Origin: Candidatus Cloacimonadota bacterium
Lineage (GTDB): Bacteria > Muiribacteriota > UBA6191
Length of the DNA: 64,000 bases
Assembly: GCA_019454875.1 (NCBI GenBank)
Contig: JACFNL010000006.1
Coordinates: forward strand, 5,349 to 69,348
Reading direction: 5' to 3'
Part shown: positions 9,386 to 55,668 of the stretch, piece by piece
Position numbering within the stretch: position 1 is the stretch's first letter
How the letters are laid out: each line of letters opens with the position of its first letter
Program-made: the position numbers and the translations under genes
Notes under the pieces: generated by a model
Told to the model about the DNA's origin: nothing
Database searches by the model: none
Seen by the model: the letters and a program-made list of their open reading frames with translations, nothing else

Positions 9386-9643
9386 ATGTCAGAAGCTATG
9401 ACTGAAAAAGATACTTATGAAAGAGTAAAGGCAATTGTTGCCAAGCAGCTGGGGGCAGAAGATGATGCCATTACCGCAGAAGCAAATTTTGTAGAAGATC
9501 TACGAGCTGATTCATTGGATATTGTAGAACTGATTATGGCCTTAGAGGAGGAATTTGATGTAGAGATTCCTGATGAAAAGGCCGAGGCTATGAAAACAGT
9601 GCAATCAGCTGTTGATTACATTATTGCCAATACAAAAAATTAA
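9386..9643 (+). CDS. acpP: Acyl carrier protein
   Basis: ADSLDIVEL phosphopantetheine site. Confidence 0.97.
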
Positions 9644-9650
9644 CTGATTT

Positions 9651-9687
9651 AAACCGGTGGATTTTCTTAGAAAGTACCACCGGTTTT
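9651..9687 (+). terminator. Intrinsic terminator/stabilising hairpin after acpP
   Basis: AAACCGGTGG...CCACCGGTTT inverted repeat with short T tract. Confidence 0.7.
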
Positions 9688-9712
9688 CGCTATGTTTCAG
9701 AGGGAGAATCGC

Positions 9713-10948
9713 ATGGAAAGGGTAGTCATTACAGGAATCGGTTCTGTGTCAGCACTAGGGCACGACTCCAACACCATGTTTCAGAATCTGTTATCAGGGG
9801 TTTCAGGTGTAGGCCCGATCTCGCATTTTGATACCGAGGGCCACGACACTAAAATTGCCGCAGAGGTGAAAGATTTGCCTGTTGAGAAATATTTTGATGT
9901 AAAGTCCTTGAAAAAGTTTGACCGCTTCTCCCAGTTTGCCTGGATTGCTGCCGAGGAGGCCATGAAGCAGAGCGGCTTGCAATTAGAACAGTTGGATCTA
10001 CATCGCGCAGGGGTACTTATTGGTTCTGGAATAGGTGGGATTATGACGCTTGAGGCGACTATGGAGCAGTATCGGCTTCGTGGCACCAAAGGGGTATCGC
10101 CATTTTTTATCTCCAATCTGATTTCTAATGAAGCCGGAGGCAATGTTGCCATTCGCTACGGTTTTAAAGGCATGAACTTTGGAATTGTATCGGCCTGTTC
10201 CACGGGAACACATTGTATTGGAGAGAGCTTTAAAGCCATCCGCTACAAAGAGCAGGATATCATGATAGCTGGGGGTACTGAGGCTTCAATTACACCTTTG
10301 ACCGTGGCCGGATTTTCCAATATGAAGGCTATGAGCCGTAATAATCAGAACCCTAAAAACGCCTCCAGACCATTTGATAGGGATCGGGATGGATTTGTAA
10401 TTGGAGAAGGTTCAGGGGTACTGGTCATGGAATCTTTGACACATGCCAAAAAACGCGGTGCCAATATTTTAGCTGAGGTGATTGGTTACGGGGCTACATG
10501 TGATGCCCACCATATTACTGCAATTGCTCCTGGAGGCGAGGGTATGGCCAGGGCCATACAACTGGCATTGAGCCAAGCCGGAACCGGGTTGGATTCTGTG
10601 GATTATATTAATGCTCATGGGACCTCGACCCCTATCGGGGACAAGTATGAAACTGAGTGCATCAAGTCTGTGTTTAAAGAGCATGCCTACCGCTTAAGTG
10701 TCAGTTCCACAAAATCCATGATTGGGCATCTTTTAGGGGCTGCCGGTGGGGTGGAGTCTGTTGTTTGTGTCAAGTCACTTCTTGAGCAGTGTGTTCATCC
10801 GACCATGAATCTTGACAACCCAGATGAAGGCTGCGATCTGGATTATGTAGCCAAAGAGGCCAGACAGAAAAAAGTAACCGTGGTATTAAAAAATTCGATG
10901 GGTTTTGGAGGGCATAACGCTGCTTTGCTGTTTCGGGCTTTTTCATGA
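9713..10948 (+). CDS. fabF: 3-oxoacyl-ACP synthase II
   Basis: MERVVITG, SACST, NAHGTST, KSMIGHLLGAAG, GFGGHN. Confidence 0.97.
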   Translation: MERVVITGIGSVSALGHDSNTMFQNLLSGVSGVGPISHFDTEGHDTKIAAEVKDLPVEKYFDVKSLKKFDRFSQFAWIAAEEAMKQSGLQLEQLDLHRAGVLIGSGIGGIMTLEATMEQYRLRGTKGVSPFFISNLISNEAGGNVAIRYGFKGMNFGIVSACSTGTHCIGESFKAIRYKEQDIMIAGGTEASITPLTVAGFSNMKAMSRNNQNPKNASRPFDRDRDGFVIGEGSGVLVMESLTHAKKRGANILAEVIGYGATCDAHHITAIAPGGEGMARAIQLALSQAGTGLDSVDYINAHGTSTPIGDKYETECIKSVFKEHAYRLSVSSTKSMIGHLLGAAGGVESVVCVKSLLEQCVHPTMNLDNPDEGCDLDYVAKEARQKKVTVVLKNSMGFGGHNAALLFRAFS

Positions 10949-26220: not shown

Positions 26221-26273
26221 AACGGTAAGAGTCTGCCTTTTTTTTGGCGACTTGTAACCTTGGAGTGAAGCGG

Positions 26274-29200
26274 ATGTTTAATTACAAGTCGGTTGCATGG
26301 CTATTGATTCTGCACCTGGTTTTACAGCCATTTTTGTTGGTTGGTACAGTGCTTTTTGCAGAAGAGGGGGATTCGGCCCCTGTGCGTCGAACTTTGAACA
26401 GAAGAAGCACTAATCCGGATCAATCACCCCCTGCTGCCCAGAATCAGGGTGAGGCGGCAACCAGTGAAAATTCTGAAACTTCCGGAACTGATACAGCTTC
26501 AGGCCCAGCAACTACAACAGGTGGCAGGCAAAGGATTCTGACTTCCATGAGCCAAAATAGAGGCTCTGTGGCCAATACCTCTTCAGCCACCGAGGTGTCC
26601 TCATCTCTTGCACTACAGGACACAGCCTATCGGGAATCTTTGGACATCCTATCGCCTGATGACACTTCCCCGGTTCTGGCAGAATCTGTTTTTGGAGCCA
26701 AGGGCAAGGTCAGAATCAACTTGGTAGCAGACAATGTGGAAATTAAAAGTATCATGGATTATCTGGCCACAGAATACAGAATCAACATCGTATCCAAGGA
26801 GATTGCCACTAACAACCGTATTAAGACCTCACTTTACGATATTCCACTGGAAACCGTATTTCAGGTACTTCTTGAGCAGTCCAATCTGTCCTATGAAAAA
26901 AGAAACGGGATTATATATCTTCAGGATCGGGGCCGTGGCCAGGATTATTTTCTGGAAGAACGGTTTTTTAAGTTGAAGCAGTTTGCCGACTTTGATTTTG
27001 CGGGAAAGCTTATCGATAACATTTCTACTTCAAGGGGCAAAAAGATCCTTCCCAATCCGGAAAAAAAGGCCTACTTTGTGGTTGAGTACAAGGCCAATCT
27101 GGAAAGAATTCAAAAGACCCTGGGTGATCTAGGATACCTTGACATCATTGATCCTGATTCATCGGTATATTCCCACCATTATCTGGCCTACAACTATGTG
27201 GATCCCAAAGTTGTGGATGAGATCATTAAAAAGCACCAGACCAAGGATGGAAAAGCCATTCCTGATGCCAAGTCCAACCGTTATATTGTGTTTGATACCA
27301 ATGCCGCCTTTGAACTAATGAAGCAGGCTCTGGATTTTATTGATGTACCCCCAGGCCAGGTGTTTGTAGATGTAAAATTTCTGGATCTGAATGATGATGA
27401 CACCAAGAGGATTGGTATGTCCCAGGTTGTGGACTGGAATGGAAACACCAATGATCAGGACAAGTTTCAGTTTTCTTTGGCTGCTGATGTGACCCGCGCC
27501 TTAAACTGGCAAGTCAGTCCTGTTGTAAATCTGGGCATGTCAGGAAACCATGATCTTTTAAACACCAAGATTATTAACAATCCCAAGGTAATGGTCATGA
27601 ATAATGACACAGCCAATATTCAGGTTACTGAGAATTTCCCCTATGTCACCAATGAAAACAGCAATGGTGTGATTTCTTCCCAGATCAATCAGGTACCTAT
27701 TGGAGTGCAGTTAAATGTTACTCCCAAAATTAATGCTAATGGTGAAGTCACCATGACACTGGAGCCTAAGGTGACTGTACTGAAGGATGTAAAAATCATT
27801 ACCACCAAGGTAATTGACACCAATCAGGCAGGGGGAAGAACCACAGAAACGGATTCAGAGTTTCCAATTATTGATGAACGCTCCATTAAAACCAATGTTA
27901 CCATTCCTAACGGTAAGACTCTGATCATTGGTGGCTTGATTAAAGAATCGGATCGCAAGGGTGTAGATCAGGTTCCGGGACTCACCAAACTACCCTTGTT
28001 AGGTCGATTTTTTCGCCGTACCACGGACGCTGAATCCAAGTCCCAGCTCTACATTTTTATTACTCCAACTATTGTCAAACAGGCACCAGTTACCTCGGCC
28101 TTCCGATCGCAGCAACTTGCAGCTGTTCCATCTCTGTCTACCAGTGTAAGTGACAGCTCCACTCAGACCAGAGTGGCAGTTCCAGGACTACAGGTAAGCT
28201 CGGCTGAACCAGAAACAAAAGCCAGACCCGGTGTTACACCTCTTAAGGAAAAGGTCGATTTTTCAACCTTTTTGCAGAAGGTGAATGCTTTACGGGAGAA
28301 GGAAAGACAGGAAAAATTTGAGGCATCCGATGTGCAGGCTAGAAATGTTCAGAAACAGGAAGGTTTTGATCATTTAATTGAAAAACTGAAGCAGGATATT
28401 CGTACCGAGTCACAAAAACCGGAAGCTGTAGCTACAAAGACATTGGTATCCACCGAGCCATCCCAAAAACTCAGTGCTCCGCTTATCCCTAAGGATGTGG
28501 TTCTAGGAGACAGGGCAGAACGCATTGCCAAGCTTCTTAGAGCATGGGAAGAAAATCCAGTGGATGGTGTTATGAAACCCAAGGAAGCAGTCGCAGATCC
28601 AATTGATCTTAGACCTCGGCCACCAGAGGCCAAGGCACTTCCCGATACAACACCTTTGAGTCAGGACATTGGGGGAGGACCAAGACGAGTGTCCGTTGCT
28701 GCCCCCGAGGTTAAAAAGATCGAGGTGGTGGTTCCCGTTGAGACCAAGGCAGAGGAAGTCAAGGCCTTGGTTGAAGACCCGATTCAGATGGATTATTTCT
28801 CACCGTTAGGAATTGCTCCTGATGCCAGGAAAAGGCGGGCTGTTGAGGATCCGGTGTTTAGATTTGGAGACATTAACGGAACCAGACCGAATCCGAATGC
28901 AGCTCCTGTTAACACTTCGGCACCAGAGGTTATGGAGACAGACATACCCTCGGAGGAAGCAGCAGGCGAGACTACTTCAGAAACTTCGGAAGCACCGACA
29001 CGCAGACGAAAGGTTGGTTTTTTTGAGGAGCCCATGTCCCCCAATCAGTTTCTGCCCGTACCTAAAGTTGAAACTCCTTTAAAAAAGGTTGTGTCAACTG
29101 GCTCGAATCGCAGCTTTGAGTTTACTGTGCGACCTACGGAAACCAAAGGTGATAAAACTTCGGGCTCACAAAACTGGGTGGATGACTTTTTGGAAAGAGA

Positions 29201-29705
29201 TCTGACCAGAATTGTAGTGTCACAACTTAGTGAATCTGAAGATGAGATCTTTGCGATGGCCGGACATAAACAGGCACAGGCTCCGGTAAAAAACGAGGTT
29301 GAAAAACCAATGCCGCCTGCTGAGCCTGTAAAAGATGAAGTTGTGCCAGCACCTCAGCCTGTTGTTGCAAAGGCTAAGGAGAAAGAAGCTCGGCCAGTGA
29401 TTATGAGTTCTCCTGATCCAAAAACCCAGGAGATTTTTAATGAATTAAACAGGACTGAACCTTTGTTATCCAAGAGGACTGTGGTCGCTGAGGTACCGGT
29501 AACTCCAGTGCCTGAACCAAGAAAAGTGCCTGCAGAATCAGATTTTGAAGCATTTTTAGCAGATATGTTTAGTCCCACAGATGATGTAGCGGCTGTTAGT
29601 CAGGCTTCCTCGGTTGCAAAGACAGGTACAACAACTTCCACAAAACTACCTTCTTTGTCGGCTAGTGCGGAACGGGATTTCCTACAGTTTCTGGGAGGAT
29701 TTTAA
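26274..29705 (+). CDS. Secretin (PilQ/GspD family) with long disordered C-terminal extension
   Basis: Signal peptide, N-domains, QVFVDVKF, NPKVMVMNN, GVQLNVTPKI, LIIGGLI, VPGLTKLPLLGRFF, IFITPTIV. Confidence 0.9.
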   Translation: MFNYKSVAWLLILHLVLQPFLLVGTVLFAEEGDSAPVRRTLNRRSTNPDQSPPAAQNQGEAATSENSETSGTDTASGPATTTGGRQRILTSMSQNRGSVANTSSATEVSSSLALQDTAYRESLDILSPDDTSPVLAESVFGAKGKVRINLVADNVEIKSIMDYLATEYRINIVSKEIATNNRIKTSLYDIPLETVFQVLLEQSNLSYEKRNGIIYLQDRGRGQDYFLEERFFKLKQFADFDFAGKLIDNISTSRGKKILPNPEKKAYFVVEYKANLERIQKTLGDLGYLDIIDPDSSVYSHHYLAYNYVDPKVVDEIIKKHQTKDGKAIPDAKSNRYIVFDTNAAFELMKQALDFIDVPPGQVFVDVKFLDLNDDDTKRIGMSQVVDWNGNTNDQDKFQFSLAADVTRALNWQVSPVVNLGMSGNHDLLNTKIINNPKVMVMNNDTANIQVTENFPYVTNENSNGVISSQINQVPIGVQLNVTPKINANGEVTMTLEPKVTVLKDVKIITTKVIDTNQAGGRTTETDSEFPIIDERSIKTNVTIPNGKTLIIGGLIKESDRKGVDQVPGLTKLPLLGRFFRRTTDAESKSQLYIFITPTIVKQAPVTSAFRSQQLAAVPSLSTSVSDSSTQTRVAVPGLQVSSAEPETKARPGVTPLKEKVDFSTFLQKVNALREKERQEKFEASDVQARNVQKQEGFDHLIEKLKQDIRTESQKPEAVATKTLVSTEPSQKLSAPLIPKDVVLGDRAERIAKLLRAWEENPVDGVMKPKEAVADPIDLRPRPPEAKALPDTTPLSQDIGGGPRRVSVAAPEVKKIEVVVPVETKAEEVKALVEDPIQMDYFSPLGIAPDARKRRAVEDPVFRFGDINGTRPNPNAAPVNTSAPEVMETDIPSEEAAGETTSETSEAPTRRRKVGFFEEPMSPNQFLPVPKVETPLKKVVSTGSNRSFEFTVRPTETKGDKTSGSQNWVDDFLERDLTRIVVSQLSESEDEIFAMAGHKQAQAPVKNEVEKPMPPAEPVKDEVVPAPQPVVAKAKEKEARPVIMSSPDPKTQEIFNELNRTEPLLSKRTVVAEVPVTPVPEPRKVPAESDFEAFLADMFSPTDDVAAVSQASSVAKTGTTTSTKLPSLSASAERDFLQFLGGF

Positions 29706-30235
29706 AGTTCAAACCGGCTGCTTTGAGTATACAGGGCAGCCAGTTCAAACAGAAGATTATCACCATTTCTGAATTCAGGCCGAACATCTTCACTGACTTC
29801 TTTAGGCAGTGGGAGGCCCACCTTCCATACTTCCATACGGATAAGATAGGTGACACGGCTTGTAGTACTTAGATCTTCGACTTTGGTGATTCTGGAAAAT
29901 GTACGAAAATGCGCATTGTTGTATTCAAGATCCATACTTGTTGCATTAGGAGATAAAAGGGAGCGATCGCGGATTCCGGGAGCAACCAGGGTTATTTCTG
30001 GTGGATAGGCTGAAAAATTGGCAGGTGAGATCCTGTCGATAAACTGATGCTGATTCAAAAACAAATCCATCTGATTACGACCGACTGTAATGGCACTCAC
30101 CTGGTCCTGCTGCATTAAAAGCAGTTCTACAAGATTGGCCAATGACCCAATCAGGGGAAATACCCCAACGGCGATCACAGTGATGGTGATCAGCAGTTCA
30201 ATCAGGGTTACACCTTTATTGTATAGAGGTTTCAT
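29702..30235 (-). CDS. Prepilin-type N-terminal cleavage/methylation protein (PilV/pseudopilin-like)
   Basis: NKG|VTLIELLI class III signal. Confidence 0.85.
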   Translation of the reverse strand: MKPLYNKGVTLIELLITITVIAVGVFPLIGSLANLVELLLMQQDQVSAITVGRNQMDLFLNQHQFIDRISPANFSAYPPEITLVAPGIRDRSLLSPNATSMDLEYNNAHFRTFSRITKVEDLSTTSRVTYLIRMEVWKVGLPLPKEVSEDVRPEFRNGDNLLFELAALYTQSSRFEL

Positions 30236-41165: not shown

Positions 41166-41558
41166 CTACTCCGCAAAAAGCTGGACGGCCTGTTTGTGAA
41201 AGTAGTTCAGAACCAGATTTCGCAGTTCCATCAGGTCGCAGTCTGATTTGGCGAGAAAGTCTTCGATGCCAAGGTTGTTAAAGGTGCGGATGTAATTTTC
41301 CTGAACATGGGCCGTGAGAACAAAGATGCCTACCTTGTCATTTAAGGTTCGGATTTTTTTCAAAAATTCTACGCCATTCATTTCGGGCATGTGAATGTCG
41401 GTAAAAATCAGATCGTAAGAGTCTGACTGGAATCGTTCCAGGGCTAAAACACCATTTTCGGCCACATGGACAATGACATTGGGCAGGGCTTGAAGTGCAT
41501 CACAAAGCAGTTGTGCAAACAGTCTTTCATCTTCAACAATCAAGATTTTTTTTTCCAT
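41166..41558 (-). CDS. Single-domain (CheY-like) response regulator
   Basis: ILIVEDE, TDIHMPEMNG, LTAH, FLAK. Confidence 0.92.
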   Translation of the reverse strand: MEKKILIVEDERLFAQLLCDALQALPNVIVHVAENGVLALERFQSDSYDLIFTDIHMPEMNGVEFLKKIRTLNDKVGIFVLTAHVQENYIRTFNNLGIEDFLAKSDCDLMELRNLVLNYFHKQAVQLFAE

Positions 41559-47952: not shown

Positions 47953-48519
47953 ATGTTTTTTGTTGAAGATGTTATGCTAAGTGATGCAATTCGGTACACC
48001 CGTTTTGGCTGCCGTCTTATGACATGCAAAGGTAAATGCTGTGAGGAGGGGGATAGTGGTGCTCCTCTTACCGAACTTGAAGCCCAGACAATTGAAGCAA
48101 TCCTGCCAATTGTGGCTTCAGAGCTAGAGCCGTCTGGATTGCAGGTGGCGAGCAGGCGGGCAGTGGTTCGTGAACAAGGCAGGCCACATACCCCGTTAGT
48201 TGGGGAAGCTGGGCCATGCGCCTATCTGATTCCTGGTGAAGGCTCGGTTAAAATCTGTGCCTTTGAAAAACTTTTTAAAGAGGGAAAAATCGGATTTTTG
48301 AAACCCGTTTCCTGCCATTTGTTTCCACTGATTTTTAAAGAAACCATGTTTTATCGCTCATTATCTTTGCAGACCAGGGAATCCTGCATGTCTTCTTATG
48401 GAGCAGCCGGGCCTCATATTGTAGAATTTTTGAAAGAACCCCTGATTCGTCAGTTTGGGGAAGATTGGGTAAAAAAATTGTTTCTTGAGCTTAACTTAAC
48501 CTTTGAATCAGACTCCTGA
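47953..48519 (+). CDS. DUF3109 family Cys-rich protein
   Basis: CKGKCCEEGDSGAPL, CAY, CAFE, KPVSCHLFP; start reassigned to ATG 47953. Confidence 0.85.
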   Translation: MFFVEDVMLSDAIRYTRFGCRLMTCKGKCCEEGDSGAPLTELEAQTIEAILPIVASELEPSGLQVASRRAVVREQGRPHTPLVGEAGPCAYLIPGEGSVKICAFEKLFKEGKIGFLKPVSCHLFPLIFKETMFYRSLSLQTRESCMSSYGAAGPHIVEFLKEPLIRQFGEDWVKKLFLELNLTFESDS

Positions 48520-50280
48520 ACCCAGACTTTCCAGTGTGACAAGTGTGTCCTGAAACTCGTTGGGCTTGGTTGTTACTTCAGGATCCAGATTTAAACCCTG
48601 TTTGACCAGTCGGTTAAAATCCTGCCAGACCTGTTGTCCTGGGGTGGCGAGCTTCCGGTCAGAAACTTCGGCTAGAAAGTCGAGCTGGTATACCTTGTTA
48701 TTTTGTAATACAAACACGGATCTTTTGGCGATATAACCCCGGTTCTGCTGACCTGAAGGATGGGGGAATACATAATCTACCAAAAACACCTCATCGCCCC
48801 AGTATTTGTCGGCTACACTGAAATAATCATTCTGGTACCTGGTCGAATAATAGGCTGCAAGGTTACTGCGTAACTGTTCCAAAGTACCGGCTTCCGAGGC
48901 ATTCAGAACAGAAAAGGTTCCTCGAAGGTTACTTTCAGGATCGGGATAGAAGCGGTATTTGGTTGAAGAACGGGAATCAGGATTTTTTTCCCACTTCCAT
49001 TCACTAAGCCCTGATTTTACAACAGGAGCAGGAATCTGATAGAACTCATAGAACCTAAATCCGGCTCCACCAAGAAGCCCAAGGATGGAGATAGCTGCCA
49101 AGTTGCGCACAAATCGAATCATCAGGGTAAAAATTCCAGGACTGTTATTCTGTTGTGTCTGATTGTGGGTATTATTGTTCATTGGTCCATTCTGGCGACG
49201 ATCCCGCCTTTGAATCAGTTCATCGACCTGTGTTTTGCCTGAGTCGGATACCTTAGGTTCTTCCAGGCGGGACAGTTCCTGGGAAATACTTTCTGTTTTC
49301 TGAATCAACTCTTCAAGATCCGCTGAATATGTGTCAGCCACCAGCTCTTTGACGGGCTGTGGTTTTGCTGGCTCACTTTCCAGATTGGCCTTGCGCATCA
49401 TTTCCGCCAAATCGGATTGAGACAGGATTGCATCCGGTTCGGCATCAAGCAGGGGAGCCATCTCAAGTCCAACCGAGACTGGAGCCTGTTTAACCGGAGC
49501 CTGTTTAGCCGGGGGTTCGGGAATTTTGATTTCAGATTCTTTGGTATCAAAAAGATCATCAGTAGATACCTGAATTTCCTTTTGAGTTTTGGCAATCAGG
49601 GCTTGAATATCGTCATGAGAAAGTACAGCGTCACTGTCACTATCCATGGTAGTAGCATTGGCTGCCTCAACTAAAGCAGCAATCTGATCTGGTGATAGGG
49701 GGGCATCGTCGTCAGGGTCCATGGAACTATGCAGAATTGATGGGACTTTAGGTGCGGGAGCAAAGACCTGTGGCTCAGGTTCAAGAGCAGGTGCTGGAGC
49801 TGGTGCTGGGCTTTGGGCTTCACGGATCAATGCCTCTATGTCATCGGAAGACATGATTTCATCTTTACTAGGGCTAGAGGTTTCTACCTTGGCTACAGCT
49901 GGTTCAGGTTCAGGTTCTGGTTCAGGCTGGGGCTCAGGTTGTGGTTCAGGTTCAGGCTTAGCTGCCTGAGTGGTGGATTTAATCAATGCGTCAATATCGC
50001 CTTGACTTAACATTCCATCGTCTGGTTCCATTTTAGAGCTCTGAGGCTCAGGCTTGGGTTCCTCTTGGGCTGGGGAGTCTGTAGCAGAGGCACTAGGAGT
50101 ATCGGCAGTGTCTTTGGTCTCATTCTCTTCGGCTTCTTTAGCCTTGTCTGGATCCTCGGGAGGATTCAAAATATTTTCGTTGGTTGCATTGAGGGTATTT
50201 TCGGGGAATAGGCTGGCTACGGCGTATTTTTCCGCCTCTGTAAATAGATCCTGAATTTCCCGATCGGTGAACTGTGACAT
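48508..50280 (-). CDS. Single-pass membrane protein with disordered N-terminal arm bearing repeated FliM-N-like motifs and an extracytoplasmic C-terminal domain
   Basis: LSQGDIDALI, MSSDDIEALI, LSPDQIAALV, LSHDDIQALI, LSQSDLAEMM; TM near aa 393-410. Confidence 0.75.
   Translation of the reverse strand: MSQFTDREIQDLFTEAEKYAVASLFPENTLNATNENILNPPEDPDKAKEAEENETKDTADTPSASATDSPAQEEPKPEPQSSKMEPDDGMLSQGDIDALIKSTTQAAKPEPEPQPEPQPEPEPEPEPAVAKVETSSPSKDEIMSSDDIEALIREAQSPAPAPAPALEPEPQVFAPAPKVPSILHSSMDPDDDAPLSPDQIAALVEAANATTMDSDSDAVLSHDDIQALIAKTQKEIQVSTDDLFDTKESEIKIPEPPAKQAPVKQAPVSVGLEMAPLLDAEPDAILSQSDLAEMMRKANLESEPAKPQPVKELVADTYSADLEELIQKTESISQELSRLEEPKVSDSGKTQVDELIQRRDRRQNGPMNNNTHNQTQQNNSPGIFTLMIRFVRNLAAISILGLLGGAGFRFYEFYQIPAPVVKSGLSEWKWEKNPDSRSSTKYRFYPDPESNLRGTFSVLNASEAGTLEQLRSNLAAYYSTRYQNDYFSVADKYWGDEVFLVDYVFPHPSGQQNRGYIAKRSVFVLQNNKVYQLDFLAEVSDRKLATPGQQVWQDFNRLVKQGLNLDPEVTTKPNEFQDTLVTLESLGSGV
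49900..49956 (-). repeat. Coding (PE/PQ)n low-complexity repeat
   Basis: CCTGAA-type hexamers encoding PEPEPQPEPQPEPEPEPEP. Confidence 0.8.
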
Positions 50281-50301: not shown

Positions 50302-50328
50302 TTATCGGCAGCATATTCTAGTTGCTAG
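50302..50328 (-). promoter_or_regulatory. Putative sigma28-like promoter (perfect -10, weak -35)
   Basis: GCCGATAA at 50309-50302, 21 nt upstream of ATG 50280. Confidence 0.45.
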
Positions 50329-51944
50329 AGGTCCTGTAGAAAATCTTTAATTTGAATTTCAGGAATTTTCAGCAGTTTCTCTTTTGAAACAAAAAGATCA
50401 GAATCATTTAAGTCCTGATTTAAAAATCCCTGATCAAACAGGGATGGCATGGACTGTGATTTACTGCCAGCACTCATTCTGTATTCGGTTGGATTGTAAG
50501 CCACAACTTTAGTATTGAGCCCCTGTCCAAACCGCATTTGAGTGCCAGATTGAAGTTTTGTTGTTTCTATTTTGGTATCTACCGTCAGTTCACCCTGGAC
50601 TACACCGGCTGTGGAATAGTCAGGATGGTGGCGGGCTAGATGGTAACTTCCGATTTTTCCTTCAATCCTGCCATGACTGGTCTGACAGGCAAATGCCTTC
50701 TCTTTGTCCTTAACTGTGATTTTGATACTTCCTGTATCCAGATGAAATTCATTGTGGGCGATAACCCTTAAGTCGGAGGCTGCTTCGAGAACGATGTCGG
50801 CATGTGATGTTTTAAGATAGGCATCTGAACTTGAGGTTCTAAGAAATTCTCCAGCACGAACAGGACTGTTTTGGCCATTTAACTCAAAAAAACCAACAGG
50901 TGGATTAAACTGATCCATGTTTTGCAAAAGACTCATTGTGTTTGTAGTGCTTTTGACTTCGGATACGGTTTCACTTCGGACAGGGTTTATAGTTTTGTAT
51001 ATGGAGCCACAAAAGAAAACTACAATAACTGCCAAAGCTGGTTTCACCAGGGCTGTGGCCTGCTTCTCCTCAACCTGATTTTTCCAGGGCTCAGTACTGA
51101 ATCCATCGGCTTCAGAGTTTTCCAGTTCCTGTTTTTCCTGAAGCTGCCGGATCTCATTTTGTCTGCGGATTGCTTCAATCATCGAGGAAGGTTCTGAGCT
51201 TTTTTCTTTAGGTGGCTCCCATTGGGGGTACAAGGAATGTACATGGGTGTAAATACTTTTTTCTTCAAACCGGTCACGAAAGTCGATTCTTAAACCCTGG
51301 AGAAGTCGATGCATTCTCTGGTGAAAGGGTACAGTATTCAAAATCTGCTGCTTTGAGTTTAGCTGGTCTACAAACTGGGTCAACTCTTCTGCGGCAGTGA
51401 GTGATGGGTCCTTGGCCGGGTGTCCCATTAACTGATCCAGGATTGTATACAGGTGGGCTTCCAGTACGGGTTCAGAAATTCCCAACAAGCGAGCTGTTCT
51501 TTTGGAACCGAGTCCCTCCAGGACACACAAATCAAGCAGAAACTTTCTGGGGCTGGAAAGCTGGGTTCTTCTAAGAATGGAAACGGTATCCCGATCGGGC
51601 AGGGAGTCCTTATCAAAAAACTTGTCCGACAGGGGTTGTAAATGAGTCTCTTCGTAGGCACATTCACGAACCCGGCCCAAAAACGCCTTGGCCGGTTCCG
51701 GTTTGTCCCTCAAAACCAGTTTGAGCGCACCGGTTAGCAGTAGCATATTCAGTGGCTCACTCTTGGATTGCCGGATTTTTGAGTCCCGTAATCGGCCCAA
51801 AATTTCGGCACTCCAGTTCCATGCCAATGACCTATCCTCCGTAAAATAGGTAAAAAAATGGCATAGGCAGGGATTCCCCTCGGTCCAGAGGCTTAAATAA
51901 TCTTCTGCATCAGAAACCTTTGCCATGACGGAATCGTTCTCCAT
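50325..51944 (-). CDS. Degenerate ECF sigma-like domain fused to TM and FecR-like periplasmic domain
   Basis: sigma2-like and sigma4-like (LEGLGSKRTARLLGISE) N-terminus; TM; FecR-like LDTGSI...FACQTSHG...VVQGELTV. Confidence 0.6.
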   Translation of the reverse strand: MENDSVMAKVSDAEDYLSLWTEGNPCLCHFFTYFTEDRSLAWNWSAEILGRLRDSKIRQSKSEPLNMLLLTGALKLVLRDKPEPAKAFLGRVRECAYEETHLQPLSDKFFDKDSLPDRDTVSILRRTQLSSPRKFLLDLCVLEGLGSKRTARLLGISEPVLEAHLYTILDQLMGHPAKDPSLTAAEELTQFVDQLNSKQQILNTVPFHQRMHRLLQGLRIDFRDRFEEKSIYTHVHSLYPQWEPPKEKSSEPSSMIEAIRRQNEIRQLQEKQELENSEADGFSTEPWKNQVEEKQATALVKPALAVIVVFFCGSIYKTINPVRSETVSEVKSTTNTMSLLQNMDQFNPPVGFFELNGQNSPVRAGEFLRTSSSDAYLKTSHADIVLEAASDLRVIAHNEFHLDTGSIKITVKDKEKAFACQTSHGRIEGKIGSYHLARHHPDYSTAGVVQGELTVDTKIETTKLQSGTQMRFGQGLNTKVVAYNPTEYRMSAGSKSQSMPSLFDQGFLNQDLNDSDLFVSKEKLLKIPEIQIKDFLQDL

Positions 51945-52803
51945 TAAACAGGGGATTCACTACAAAAAAACTGGTGGAAATGCTTCGTCCTTCCGGGCCA
52001 GAGCCTTGCCTTTCCCCTTGAAATACCATTTTAGTATGATGATAGACCTTGGTCAGTCTGAGATTAAACTTTGAAGGTTCTTCCTTGTCTCTAAAGTAGG
52101 AGAATTCAAAACCTGGTTCAATACTGAAGTGCTCGATTCGGCCTTCTGCCCCGTGAAGCTGCCCAAATCGATGCGTTTCCTCTCCCTCGCCCGGGCCAGT
52201 CATTCTGGAGACAAAATTCAGTTTTTCCTTGCCGCTTAAATCACTCAGATAGTGTCTATACCAGACTTTTTCACCCTTGACACCAATGTAGTACTCGCGA
52301 ACCTTGGCAGAAATAGGTTCTTCGATGTCCCGGCTGACTACGGCAAATGAATTGAGCATAAATTCAGGATGGTCATTAAGCACCACTTTTTTGTCAAAAA
52401 AGTGGTCGTATTTATCCTCATATTCATAATACATCTGGCCGTTGGCTCCAAATTTTTCCCGAGGCAGCCTTTGGATGGGCAAAACCTCAATTGTGTCAGA
52501 GACAGCGTTGACATCATCATAAACCACACAGGGGAAAAAGCGGGGCTGGATTGGAAATGGTTTTTTGTGCTGGTGTAAATCAACAGGTGCATCGCTTTTG
52601 GTGAATCCTTGAGCATCGTACAAATCCTGTCGCAAAACCATGATGAAATTTTGCATGTCCTTGATTGTGCTTAAGGTTTCTTCACCTTTAAAGGAGTTTC
52701 GTAATGATTCAATAAAATAGGTGTAGATTCCTATCAGAAGAACGGCGGCCACCCCCACTGCAAACACAGCTTCAATCAAGGTAAAACCGTGCCGTGTTTT
52801 CAT
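51910..52803 (-). CDS. Prepilin-type protein (PilW/GspJ-like)
   Basis: RHG|FTLIEAVF; ATGA coupling. Confidence 0.85.
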   Translation of the reverse strand: MKTRHGFTLIEAVFAVGVAAVLLIGIYTYFIESLRNSFKGEETLSTIKDMQNFIMVLRQDLYDAQGFTKSDAPVDLHQHKKPFPIQPRFFPCVVYDDVNAVSDTIEVLPIQRLPREKFGANGQMYYEYEDKYDHFFDKKVVLNDHPEFMLNSFAVVSRDIEEPISAKVREYYIGVKGEKVWYRHYLSDLSGKEKLNFVSRMTGPGEGEETHRFGQLHGAEGRIEHFSIEPGFEFSYFRDKEEPSKFNLRLTKVYHHTKMVFQGERQGSGPEGRSISTSFFVVNPLFNGERFRHGKGF

Positions 52804-53321
52804 TGTAAATATACCTCGTCCCTGGTCATTACGGTTTTTAACTCTAAAGACCGGTTGTATTCGCTGGCTCCAGGGGTTATCCATTCCACACGAACGGCGA
52901 GAACCTTGGCATCGGGCATAGGACGATGGTTTTCACTGGAACCGATGTTGGCAGGATAAATTTTTATCATGCGCCGAAATCGGTCTGGCATTGGAGAAAG
53001 TACAAGTTTACTTAAGGAGCGAATATCGGGATTTTTGAAATCTTCCCATAAGTAGGGGCGGGGCATGGCTGAGATATCAAGCCAGGGGTTTTTTTCGTTT
53101 TCATCCGAAATATTATTGATTCCATCCATACCCAATGACATCTTGATCGTAGTGATACTGTCAACTACCTCACGAGCAATGATCATGGCCTGAATTTCAT
53201 CCAGGCTGGCCTCGGTCTGATGTATAGACTGGCGGAACATAAAAAACATGGGTATGGCCAGAAACAGAAGAAGCATTGAGGCAATGATGATTTCCACCAG
53301 TGAAAATGCTTTTTTACTCAT
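52800..53321 (-). CDS. Prepilin-type protein (PilV/GspI-like)
   Basis: KKA|FSLVEIII; C-terminal FRRMIKI...VRVEW. Confidence 0.85.
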   Translation of the reverse strand: MSKKAFSLVEIIIASMLLLFLAIPMFFMFRQSIHQTEASLDEIQAMIIAREVVDSITTIKMSLGMDGINNISDENEKNPWLDISAMPRPYLWEDFKNPDIRSLSKLVLSPMPDRFRRMIKIYPANIGSSENHRPMPDAKVLAVRVEWITPGASEYNRSLELKTVMTRDEVYLQ

Positions 53322-55668
53322 GCTCAATTCTTTTTTTTCCTTGATTGTGATCATCCAATGCCATTCTATACATTTTCCAGCTGTCTGGAGCAAGTGGATT
53401 TAACCTAGGGTTATAGGTTAATGTAGTGGATGCCTGAAACATGGACAGATCCAGACGGGACACAGCCAGGGATCCCAAAATATGTACAATCTGTTCCGGG
53501 TTGGACTTGCGGATAGTGCCTGAAGAGGTTAGCTGGGCCTCGTAGAGAGTGGGGACTCCGGGGGGAGTGTTACCAGGATTCAAATGAATCTCGGAACATT
53601 CAAATCCTGCGTAAAATCCCTGGGATTCCACGGGAGCGAGATTACACATTCCGGCGACTATGATGCTGCTGTCTCCAGATAACACCACCGGAAGATCAAG
53701 GTTTAAATTGCCCCACAACCCAATTGTGCGCCCCTGGGTATTGAGATAAAACATCCCGCTGCCTCGCTTCAAAATTCCGGCATCCTCAAGTTTTTCCTGT
53801 TTGTCATAAAAAAAGCTGGCTCGTTTCAAAGAGGCGTGGGCCAGGTCATGATAGTCGGGTATTCCCTTCAGATATGCTCCTGTAGGTGTCATACTCTTGG
53901 GGAGCTTCTGAACCCAGGTTTCCTCATCATCCTTGCCAGGAGATGGTCTTAAACTGGGGGGGAAGCTGTAATCAAGAAAACTTTCGTGGGCATGGGGCGG
54001 AAATACCTTATGGGTATAATGAGGGAAATCGATTAAGTGATTTAAATGAACCCGGATTGTTTGGGCCATTATGGATTCATATTCCTGGTACTGAGGTGCA
54101 AGAAGCTCCCAGGAAAAATCGGGCTGGGCCAGCAGGTGGACTGGTTCTTCACAATCTTCCACAAAGTTCATATTGGTCCACTGAAGTGGCAGGGGCTGAT
54201 AAAAGGGAGGATTTTTATTCACAAATTCAAACTCGGTCAGATTGCGAATTATGGCCGAACTTTCAAAATTGTGAACAGATTCAGGCAGGCAGCGGGCTCT
54301 TGAGCGTTCATCGGCATCACTTAGATCCCGGTCTATTCTTAAGGAGCTGAGTTTTGCTATTTCCAGATAGGCTTCTCCTACTGTGTAGGTTCTTGAAGGA
54401 TAGTCTACAGAACCAAACACCTTCAAAAGAGATGATTCCGCAGAATATTGGGGAATATAGTAGGCAGGATTGGCAGGCCCGGTAGTCTCATAAAAGCCTT
54501 CGTAAAGTTCTTCCACCCATACGGATCCGGCATTGTCTGCAAGGGGTGGGGTTTCAGGATCCTCAAAAAAATAGGTAAACATCACTGGCTCGGTAAATCG
54601 TGGAGGGGGATCGAGTCTAATGTAATTTGGCAGACGAATCCTGTTGTCTCCAGTCACTTTGGCCCTGGTAGTAAAATAGTTGCGGTTAAGAATCATGAAC
54701 TGCTGTCCGGCCGCTGCCATTCCCGGAGTCATCTTGAGCACACTGGACTGGGAGTTTCCAAGGTAAAGCCATCCTCTTTGATCAATAGAGGATTTGCTTA
54801 ACTGAAGTTTGTTTGAATCCCTTAAAGAATCAAGGCCTTCCATTGTGTCAGGAGCGGGACCATAAATCTGGAGATCGGTTTTGATTTTTTCATCCTTTAA
54901 AGGACTGTGATACAGAAACATGGGGTAGTTGTACTGATATTTGAGGTTTCCACCCTGGACAATAGGGACTCCGTTAATATCTGTGTACAGCCTCTGGTAA
55001 TTACTAAAATTGGAGTCATTGTGCCAGAGAGTAAATCTGGACAAAACAGGCTGACCCAAGGAGTAGGATACCAGGGTCTTTGTCCTGACGGCCCCGCCTA
55101 TCAGACCCTTAAAATCCACGGATGCGCCAAAGTTCAGGGCACACTGAATCAAGATGCTGTCTTGAAATTCAGACTCTTTGTCCAATCTGGGATGACATGA
55201 GTAGGCCAGTTTTAGCTGGTAGTCCTCTGCTCCGATCTGCTTCAAGAACAAATCCATTGCCTTAACAGTCTGTCCCCGCTTCTTTAGCCATTCCACATTC
55301 TGTTCATGATTAATTTCTCCGTGCCCACCCTTGGGAAGCAATGAGAAGTTTCTGAGGAAGAATCCAAAATAGCCGGCATCTGTGTTGAGGCGATCTGAAT
55401 TGATTGCACTCTCAAGGATTCTGTGATCCTGGGCACCCTCCACGCTGTCGCGAAAACCCAGTATAAACAGTTCCACCAACCCTTCTGCCGCTGTTTTTGC
55501 ACTTTCTGCATAAAACATTCTGTGTGCATCACGATTTTGCTGTAAAGAACGGGAGTGTAGTGTCAAAAAAAGTATTCCAACGACACTAAGGATGCCAAGT
55601 ACTATAAAAAGTACAAAGCCCCGGTTGTGAGAATATAGTCTTTTGGGAAAAATAATTTGCATATCCAC
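53314..55668 (-). CDS. Large PilX/GspK-like minor pilin or tip adhesin
   Basis: NRG|FVLFIVL (no Glu5), AKTAAEG; C-terminal GSLAV...LTYNPRL. Confidence 0.75.
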   Translation of the reverse strand: MDMQIIFPKRLYSHNRGFVLFIVLGILSVVGILFLTLHSRSLQQNRDAHRMFYAESAKTAAEGLVELFILGFRDSVEGAQDHRILESAINSDRLNTDAGYFGFFLRNFSLLPKGGHGEINHEQNVEWLKKRGQTVKAMDLFLKQIGAEDYQLKLAYSCHPRLDKESEFQDSILIQCALNFGASVDFKGLIGGAVRTKTLVSYSLGQPVLSRFTLWHNDSNFSNYQRLYTDINGVPIVQGGNLKYQYNYPMFLYHSPLKDEKIKTDLQIYGPAPDTMEGLDSLRDSNKLQLSKSSIDQRGWLYLGNSQSSVLKMTPGMAAAGQQFMILNRNYFTTRAKVTGDNRIRLPNYIRLDPPPRFTEPVMFTYFFEDPETPPLADNAGSVWVEELYEGFYETTGPANPAYYIPQYSAESSLLKVFGSVDYPSRTYTVGEAYLEIAKLSSLRIDRDLSDADERSRARCLPESVHNFESSAIIRNLTEFEFVNKNPPFYQPLPLQWTNMNFVEDCEEPVHLLAQPDFSWELLAPQYQEYESIMAQTIRVHLNHLIDFPHYTHKVFPPHAHESFLDYSFPPSLRPSPGKDDEETWVQKLPKSMTPTGAYLKGIPDYHDLAHASLKRASFFYDKQEKLEDAGILKRGSGMFYLNTQGRTIGLWGNLNLDLPVVLSGDSSIIVAGMCNLAPVESQGFYAGFECSEIHLNPGNTPPGVPTLYEAQLTSSGTIRKSNPEQIVHILGSLAVSRLDLSMFQASTTLTYNPRLNPLAPDSWKMYRMALDDHNQGKKRIEHE

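Follow-up and report, generated by a model that had tools for sequence, protein, structure and literature searches.

A predicted membrane protein of Candidatus Cloacimonadota carries a conserved array of peptides resembling the EIDAL motif of FliM and FliY

The array gene and its product

We analysed a stretch of 64,000 nucleotides (hereafter, the window) from Candidatus Cloacimonadota bacterium, an uncultured wastewater organism assigned to the Muiribacteriota in the Genome Taxonomy Database (GTDB) (assembly GCA_019454875.1, contig JACFNL010000006.1, positions 5,349 to 69,348). On its reverse strand, at 48508..50280, the list of open reading frames (ORFs) holds a gene for a 590-amino-acid (aa) predicted bitopic membrane protein, composed of a long N-terminal arm, one transmembrane (TM) helix and an outer domain. 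The arm carries a series of peptides that resemble the EIDAL motif of the flagellar switch proteins FliM and FliY, and we refer to the gene and its product as the array gene and the array protein. The range 49210-50280 given for it in the initial annotation corresponds to aa 1-357, that is, to the arm only. All coordinates are those of the window, and all features of the array gene lie on the reverse strand.

The protein starts with a head (aa 1-41, 50158..50280) that includes a variant motif, FTDREIQDLF (aa 4-13, nt 50242-50271), within a helix modelled at residues 6-24. Five strong motifs follow: LSQGDIDALI (aa 91-100, 49981..50010), MSSDDIEALI (aa 143-152, 49825..49854), LSPDQIAALV (aa 195-204, 49669..49698), LSHDDIQALI (aa 220-229, 49594..49623), and LSQSDLAEMM (aa 286-295, 49396..49425). 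All five match the search pattern, score 16.1, 18.0, 9.1, 18.0, and 15.9 bits, respectively, against a profile of the motif, and have modelled helices at residues 93-104, 145-156, 197-209, 222-240, and 288-300. Two weak motifs, SADLEELIQ (~aa 318-327, 49300..49329, inside helix 314-339) and TQVDELIQ (aa 350-357, 49210..49233, helix 349-363), fit a loose pattern only, and the second is followed by RRDRR. Strict pattern matches in the arm begin at aa 4, 91, 143, 195, 220, and 286, and the loose pattern adds DLEELI (321) and QVDELI (351), which reproduces every motif position of the initial annotation.

When the 420-aa arm was shuffled 20,000 times, the strict pattern occurred 0.008 times on average and the loose one 0.16 times, and no shuffle reached six strict or eight loose matches. 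We also scanned all six-frame open frames of at least 80 aa in the 3.8-Mb genome (1.88 million aa). Thirty frames had a match, including the N-terminus of FliY (LSQEEIDALL) with a single one, and multiple matches (five) occurred in the array ORF alone. Such a motif count is well above chance and unique within the genome. A repeat check showed that the copies in this gene are not recent DNA repeats; therefore, each copy has been maintained separately, by selection on the peptide.

The arm contains 11.4% Pro and 19.3% Asp plus Glu and has a net charge of -47. Hydropathy windows place a single TM helix at ~aa 382-408 (49057..49137), where the model has a helix at residues 383-415, and the basic RRDRR cluster that precedes it would, by the positive-inside rule, keep the arm in the cytoplasm. 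The remainder (~aa 424-590, 48511..49011) is a predicted periplasmic domain, an alpha-beta sandwich of the DcrB/PsbP/Mog1 type according to its model and a fold search. At E up to 0.1, no Pfam family was found on the 590-aa protein, FliL (PF03748) included. Its sole NCBIfam match is to lanmodulin (aa 181-249, 18.5 bits, E 0.0016), for a cut-off of 135.

The full-length AlphaFold model, built from a 12-row alignment, has a mean predicted local distance difference test (pLDDT) score of 60. Its arm is disordered, with a pLDDT of 32-40 in the linker blocks and 56-70 in the motif blocks, and at the five strong motifs a helix starts directly after the motif Ser. The C-terminal domain modelled alone reached a pLDDT of ~87. 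VIA-align matched it to DcrB (6e8a_A, Z 11.9, root-mean-square deviation 2.7, 115 aligned), 3lyd_B (Z 10.3), 1tu1_A (Z 10.1), 1jhs (Z 9.1), and cyanobacterial PsbP (2xb3_A, Z 8.9), and Foldseek retrieved PsbP at E 5e-6. The array domain thus has the alpha-beta sandwich fold of DcrB, PsbP, and Mog1 proteins (6e8a, 2xb3, 1jhs) but differs from them in its sequence (5-16% identity, no Pfam match) and in being joined to a TM helix and a cytoplasmic arm; the modelled likeness appears to be one of fold only and says nothing on function. FliL, PilO/PilN, and GspL/M-type folds were not among the listed fold matches of the domain, which does not exclude them. Taken together, composition, hydropathy, and models bear out the layout first proposed from the sequence, namely, a disordered acidic Pro-rich arm, one TM helix, and a folded outer domain.

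Conservation of the motifs and distribution of the family

We compared five orthologues, which range from 94% to ~41% identity, include ones at 94% and 71%, and comprise two truncated sequences. All five keep every motif, and the linkers between the motifs diverge and vary in length. Among the motif columns, 48 of 70 (69%) are invariant, compared with 46 of 207 linker columns (22%; Fisher p 6e-12). Conservation of the motifs amid divergent linkers, which the initial annotation had put forward as the check to make, is therefore what the alignment displays. The head is also well conserved, with 30 of its 41 columns invariant.

When 1.84 billion representative proteins were searched with a profile, 13 matched at E up to 0.001; a word-based homologue search had found four relatives and a scan of a genome collection one locus. 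Four full-length members (P0005-P0008, 576-794 aa) have only ~20% identity and have in common the head, the array, one TM helix, and the C-terminal domain. Across the family, the array holds 3-13 copies. The lowest of these counts, in member L036, comes from a looser pattern, as one strict pattern had missed all of its copies. At the other extreme, the array gene of locus L040 (genome G072) contains a 90-bp tandem repeat at 9535-10389 (9.5 copies, 90% identity), each unit being one motif plus linker, and the array in that genus has 13 motifs. This repeat indicates a recent expansion of the array.

With a profile of the full-length family, we searched 87 species genomes of the phylum. Matches were found in 9 of the 10 genomes of the window's GTDB family and in 3 of the 51 genomes of another family, with no other out-of-family match among the 87. 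The one out-of-family match that we examined, in genome G040, is the N-terminal part of a FliY-type ORF (CheC plus FliN) located between FliM and a CheY. Judged from sequence, the array proteins with the head and the DcrB/PsbP-fold domain are a new protein family, found in one GTDB family.

Arrays of the same kind also occur on proteins of other design. P0012 and P0013 have an array, a TM helix, and a C-terminal domain, but their anchors and contexts differ from those of the window's family; P0012 has a weak FliL match (18.1 bits for a cut-off of 24.6). P0009, P0010, and P0014 have a separate architecture with the same motif type: TM helices are N-terminal, a long helical region follows, and the arrays are C-terminal, with units of the form DPNKMMSxDDIxALL spaced by Pro/Glu-rich linkers. 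No description of multi-copy EIDAL arrays was found in the literature searched, which leaves out most subscription journals.

Likeness to the EIDAL peptide of FliM and FliY

To compare the arrays with the flagellar peptides, we used a hidden Markov model of the motif made from 56 unique 16-aa copies, all taken from array proteins and none from FliM or FliY, and searched the 17,995 six-frame ORFs of the genome with it. The FliY N-terminus (VLSQEEIDALL) ranked first of the 17,994 non-self ORFs, with 12.2 bits and a sequence E of 0.033. The FliM N-terminus (LMSQAAIDDLL) came fourth among the non-self ORFs, with 7.5 bits, which is not significant. By this unbiased profile, the motifs are closer to the N-terminal peptide of FliY than to any other non-self sequence of the genome.

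The array family has the consensus D-x-[ILMV]-[ML]-S-Q-D-D-I-A-A-L-[IVL]. Its pattern in common with the FliM/FliY peptide is a hydrophobic pair, Ser, Gln, an acidic residue, Ile, any residue, Ala, Leu, and a hydrophobic residue, and in both cases a short helix is predicted after the Ser within a disordered segment. The two differ in number and in setting. C-ring proteins carry the EIDAL peptide once, at their very N-terminus, whereas the array protein has 5-8 copies, all of them internal except for the head variant. In addition, the array protein is a membrane protein in which Pfam detects no CheC-like or SPOA domains, unlike FliM and FliY.

A further comparison can be made with CheZ, whose C-terminal peptide, acidic and folded as an amphipathic helix, docks on the alpha4-beta5-alpha5 face of CheY, as the FliM peptide does. 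CheZ carries a single C-terminal copy on a phosphatase, and no CheZ-like domain was detected by Pfam on the array protein. As a separate observation, contig C70 of the genome (G000; L058 172-3171) encodes a 999-aa ORF, with no Pfam family, that has one LSSKEIDDLL ~17 residues from its C-terminus, a placement that we take to be reminiscent of CheZ.

Genes and sequences around the array gene

The gene upstream of the array gene, on the same strand, encodes a 539-aa protein (50325..51944) that looks like a fusion of a sigma-70-like N-terminal half and a FecR-like outer half, with a TM helix between them. Its Sigma70_r4_2 match (14.7 bits) is below the cut-off, and its nearest Atlas clusters, Sigma70_r2/r4 and FecR at a score of 0.95, provide a lead. 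Three pilin-like genes precede it on this strand. Two encode pseudopilin-like proteins, one of 324 aa (51910..52884; N_methyl 23.7 bits, above cut-off) and one of 197 aa (52800..53393; N_methyl 16.1 bits and ComGE-like 20.5 bits, both below cut-off). The third (53314..55668) encodes a 784-aa PilX_N-like protein with an N-terminal TM helix and no Pfam family, which would be the giant subunit of a minor-pilin cassette; here the lead is given by Atlas clusters at 0.95-0.96, one set of which has PilX_N on 45% of its members.

The order giant subunit, pseudopilin, pseudopilin, ~540-aa protein, array protein was observed in each of the five loci whose upstream flank is long enough (the window and L036-L039). 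L040 has the same gene types plus an extra pseudopilin, in a different order, and L018 and L041 end at contig ends. Downstream of the array gene are genes for DUF3109 (convergent), HPF, SecA, and PrfB, and these housekeeping genes are equally syntenic. A link to pili had been suggested for the array protein from the start. Pilin-like neighbours are indeed present in every relative with enough flank, but the link is one of neighbourhood only and within one bacterial family.

The initial annotation had also pointed to an upstream octamer. GCCGATAA is present at 50302..50309 on the reverse strand, and 21 nt separate it from the ATG. The window contains two occurrences for 1.03 expected, and 27 of 100 shuffles had at least two. 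The sigma-28 consensus has a TAAA ~15 nt upstream of its -10-type octamer, and no TAAA was found at this spacing upstream of GCCGATAA. The octamer is kept in one of six relatives, the closest one, whose intergenic region is nearly identical, and a search for CCGATA[AT] in the upstream regions of the genome's flagellin genes found none. The reading of the octamer as a sigma-28 (FliA) flagellar promoter was rejected on account of its chance frequency, the missing TAAA, and its lack of conservation. A scan for sigma-70 promoters and terminators around the array gene gave counts at the level of shuffled sequence (4 vs 2.8 and 4 vs 3.2).

Public sequencing runs that hold the window or a part of it number 20, of which 7 are RNA libraries. 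Metatranscriptome contigs of at least 99% identity, from four runs in three studies of sludge and wastewater, span parts of the array gene, which does not by itself prove transcription. Parts of the upstream pilin genes are uncovered by RNA contigs in some runs, and two contigs of one study (X4 and X5) end near 50364-50374. RNA contigs can give neither transcript ends nor transcript levels, and we draw no conclusion on a separate promoter from them.

Candidate clients

Two kinds of protein are known to read the EIDAL peptide. According to PMC6946799 and bioRxiv 10.1101/2022.04.21.489128, the EIDAL motif of FliM is the high-affinity site for phosphorylated CheY (CheY-P). The second source also describes the motif as necessary and sufficient for the interaction with FlhG, a MinD-like ATPase. 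PMC12826062 gives FliM as the partner of FlhG in polar flagellates, and in B. subtilis FliY takes this place. Passages of bioRxiv 10.1101/2022.04.21.489128 and PMC12826062 state that FliM raises the ATPase activity of FlhG and report that HubP interacts with FlhG and FlhF.

The genome encodes FliM, FliY, and FliA and has 9 flagellin-N, 5 CheW, and 40 receiver-domain matches. Its chemotaxis loci contain a CheY-CheX pair on contig C21 and a CheW-CheR-CheD-CheY-CheX-CheB series on C36. CheY-type receivers, on whose presence the original proposal depended, are thus available as candidate clients, with at least two CheY-CheX pairs. On contig C49 (L021 793-6252), flhA is followed by two tandem genes for MinD-family ATPases and by flhF, an order that differs from the usual flagellar order, flhF-flhG. 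Both ATPases score as MinD-family only, below cut-offs, and no model names either of them FlhG; the FlhF match (163 bits) is just below its 174-bit cut-off. Because EIDAL is published as an FlhG site and MinD-like ATPases are encoded in the flagellar locus, CheY-P is not the sole candidate client.

All 10 genomes of the GTDB family encode FliM, and CheW was found in 7 of them. Two array-bearing genomes, G069 (92% complete) and G074 (85% complete), gave no match for CheW, methyl-accepting chemotaxis proteins (MCPs), or the CheA dimerisation domain, and both encode FliM and FliY with intact EIDAL peptides. These genomes could represent flagella without classical chemotaxis or could result from missing contigs. 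They lean toward a client other than the CheY-P of classical chemotaxis, such as FlhG, but the test is not a clean one: the genomes are incomplete, CheX is present in both, and G069 has a near-identical CheY-CheX pair. A complex prediction for the C21 CheY (residues 22-147) with arm residues 84-160 scored 0.00 in both runs; made without controls, it speaks neither for nor against binding.

Two side observations concern the same functional classes. A stand-alone receiver domain of ~130 aa is encoded in the window at 41223-41546 on the reverse strand, adjoining prfB, and is kept in the array-gene block of L018, L037, L040, and L041. In the genome, the nine flagellin-N matches are located on contigs C56, C189, C175, C50, C196, and C194, mostly in very long frames (593-1655 aa), which suggests giant flagellins.

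A proposed docking array at the membrane

We infer, with about an even chance of being right, that the array protein works as a docking array, membrane-tethered and multivalent, for EIDAL-reading proteins. In this model, one TM helix and a DcrB/PsbP-fold domain in the periplasm would anchor the protein in the inner membrane and keep its flexible, strongly acidic arm (~380 aa) on the cytoplasmic side of that membrane, and the five good and three weaker EIDAL-type helix peptides strung on the arm would serve as binding sites. CheY-P would be slightly favoured as the client, FlhG being a serious alternative or an additional client. With several sites per molecule, the protein would concentrate, buffer, or position its regulators at the membrane, and the periplasmic domain, together with the pilin-like and sigma/FecR-like envelope proteins encoded next to the array gene, may determine where. 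EIDAL is known as a lone N-terminal handle of the flagellar switch, and its array on a membrane protein is a new architectural variant. If these arrays do bind CheY-P or FlhG, they would provide a previously unrecognised way to buffer, localise, or gate such regulators, which would bear on motor sensitivity, CheY-P lifetime, flagellar number, and possibly crosstalk between pili and flagella.

Several observations weigh against the docking array. The likeness to the FliY N-terminus is objective, yet it comes from a short, low-scoring peptide, with only 12 bits. The residue after the motif Ile is Ala in 33 of 61 copies and Asp in 4, a position occupied in FliM and FliY by the Asp of EIDAL, and the conserved acidic run just upstream of the array copies is missing in FliM and FliY. 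A start of the form S-x-x-[DE]-hydrophobic is a generic helix-capping box, and some of the likeness may have arisen by convergence. The array gene is located outside the flagellar and chemotaxis clusters and follows the minor-pilin cassette and the sigma/FecR-like gene; moreover, all array members come from one GTDB family, and the shared gene order therefore cannot count as independent support for a functional link. Finally, G069 and G074 argue against a strict dependence on classical chemotaxis.

One alternative, to which we give a real if minor chance, is that the copies serve as short linear motifs, specific to this lineage, for a different partner and that their EIDAL likeness, a capping box followed by an amphipathic helix, arose by convergence. 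This partner might be a component of the pilus machine or the sigma-like, cytoplasmic half of the protein encoded upstream, which would agree with the constant place of the array gene behind the sigma/FecR-like gene and the pilin cassette, away from the flagellar locus. The departure of the consensus at the Asp position, its added acidic run, and the non-significant match of FliM-N point the same way. Against such a partner stand the rank of FliY-N ahead of all other non-self ORFs and the FliY-type N-terminus that the family profile retrieved outside the GTDB family (G040). The array of P0012, with its weak FliL match, ties the motif type to flagella as well, and the synteny that speaks for a pilus or sigma partner is known from one bacterial family only.

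It is also possible, but in our estimation rather improbable, that the array recruits or activates FlhG at a membrane site, acting as a HubP-like landmark for flagellar number or position. The published role of EIDAL in FlhG binding and the contact between HubP and FlhG, as the sources above give them, would both be in line with such a landmark. The same applies to the two MinD-like ATPases between flhA and flhF, even if they are identified at the family level only. B. subtilis FlhG is described there as binding FliY rather than FliM, and the array profile is nearer to the genome's FliY-N than to its FliM-N. Across the family, FliM is more constant than CheW, and G069 and G074, in which CheA, CheW, and MCPs went undetected, keep the EIDAL peptides of FliM and FliY, but the absence of chemotaxis genes is not clean, as CheY and CheX persist in G069. 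HubP and FimV resemble the array protein in general layout: each crosses the membrane once and combines a long cytoplasmic region, very acidic and containing repeats, with a domain that anchors it in the periplasm. This is an analogy only: the array protein has no domain in common with HubP or FimV in Pfam (neither a LysM nor a FimV domain at E up to 0.1), and the repeats are unrelated. The N-terminal position of the arm in the array protein is, we assume, the opposite of the HubP topology and thus a point against the landmark.

A role in metal binding, in which the acidic run and helix start would be EF-hand or dockerin-like half-sites of a buffer or switch for Ca2+ or another metal, is highly implausible: the weak lanmodulin match is far below its cut-off, and although some copies fit D-x-D-x-[DN]-x-x-hydrophobic-x-x-x-[DE], the 61 copies have their acidic run at positions 3-5 (62%, 57%, and 77% D/N) instead of 1-3-5 (position 1, 23% D/N), Gly at position 6 in 23% of cases, and no entering helix, whereas the EF-hand consensus is D1-x-[DN]3-x-[DNS]5-G6-x-hydrophobic8-x-x-x-[ED]12, flanked by helices.

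Returning to the docking array, one can speculate on how it might work with its neighbours. The array, the sigma/FecR-like regulator, and the minor-pilin cassette might form one system in which a signal from the envelope or the pilus controls the free CheY-P, the FlhG, or both at the flagellar motor, a proposal that we regard as quite doubtful. If true, it would amount to a direct physical link of a pilus-type filament to flagellar switching or number, and membrane-tethered EIDAL arrays would be a new class of bacterial signalling scaffold.

Other features of the window

The rest of the window contains housekeeping genes, a secretin, and another pseudopilin. The secretin gene (26244-29705, forward strand) encodes 1153 aa, in which the Secretin domain covers residues 440-612 only and is followed by more than 500 unmatched residues. 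The pseudopilin gene (29702-30235, reverse strand) adjoins it and is convergent with it.

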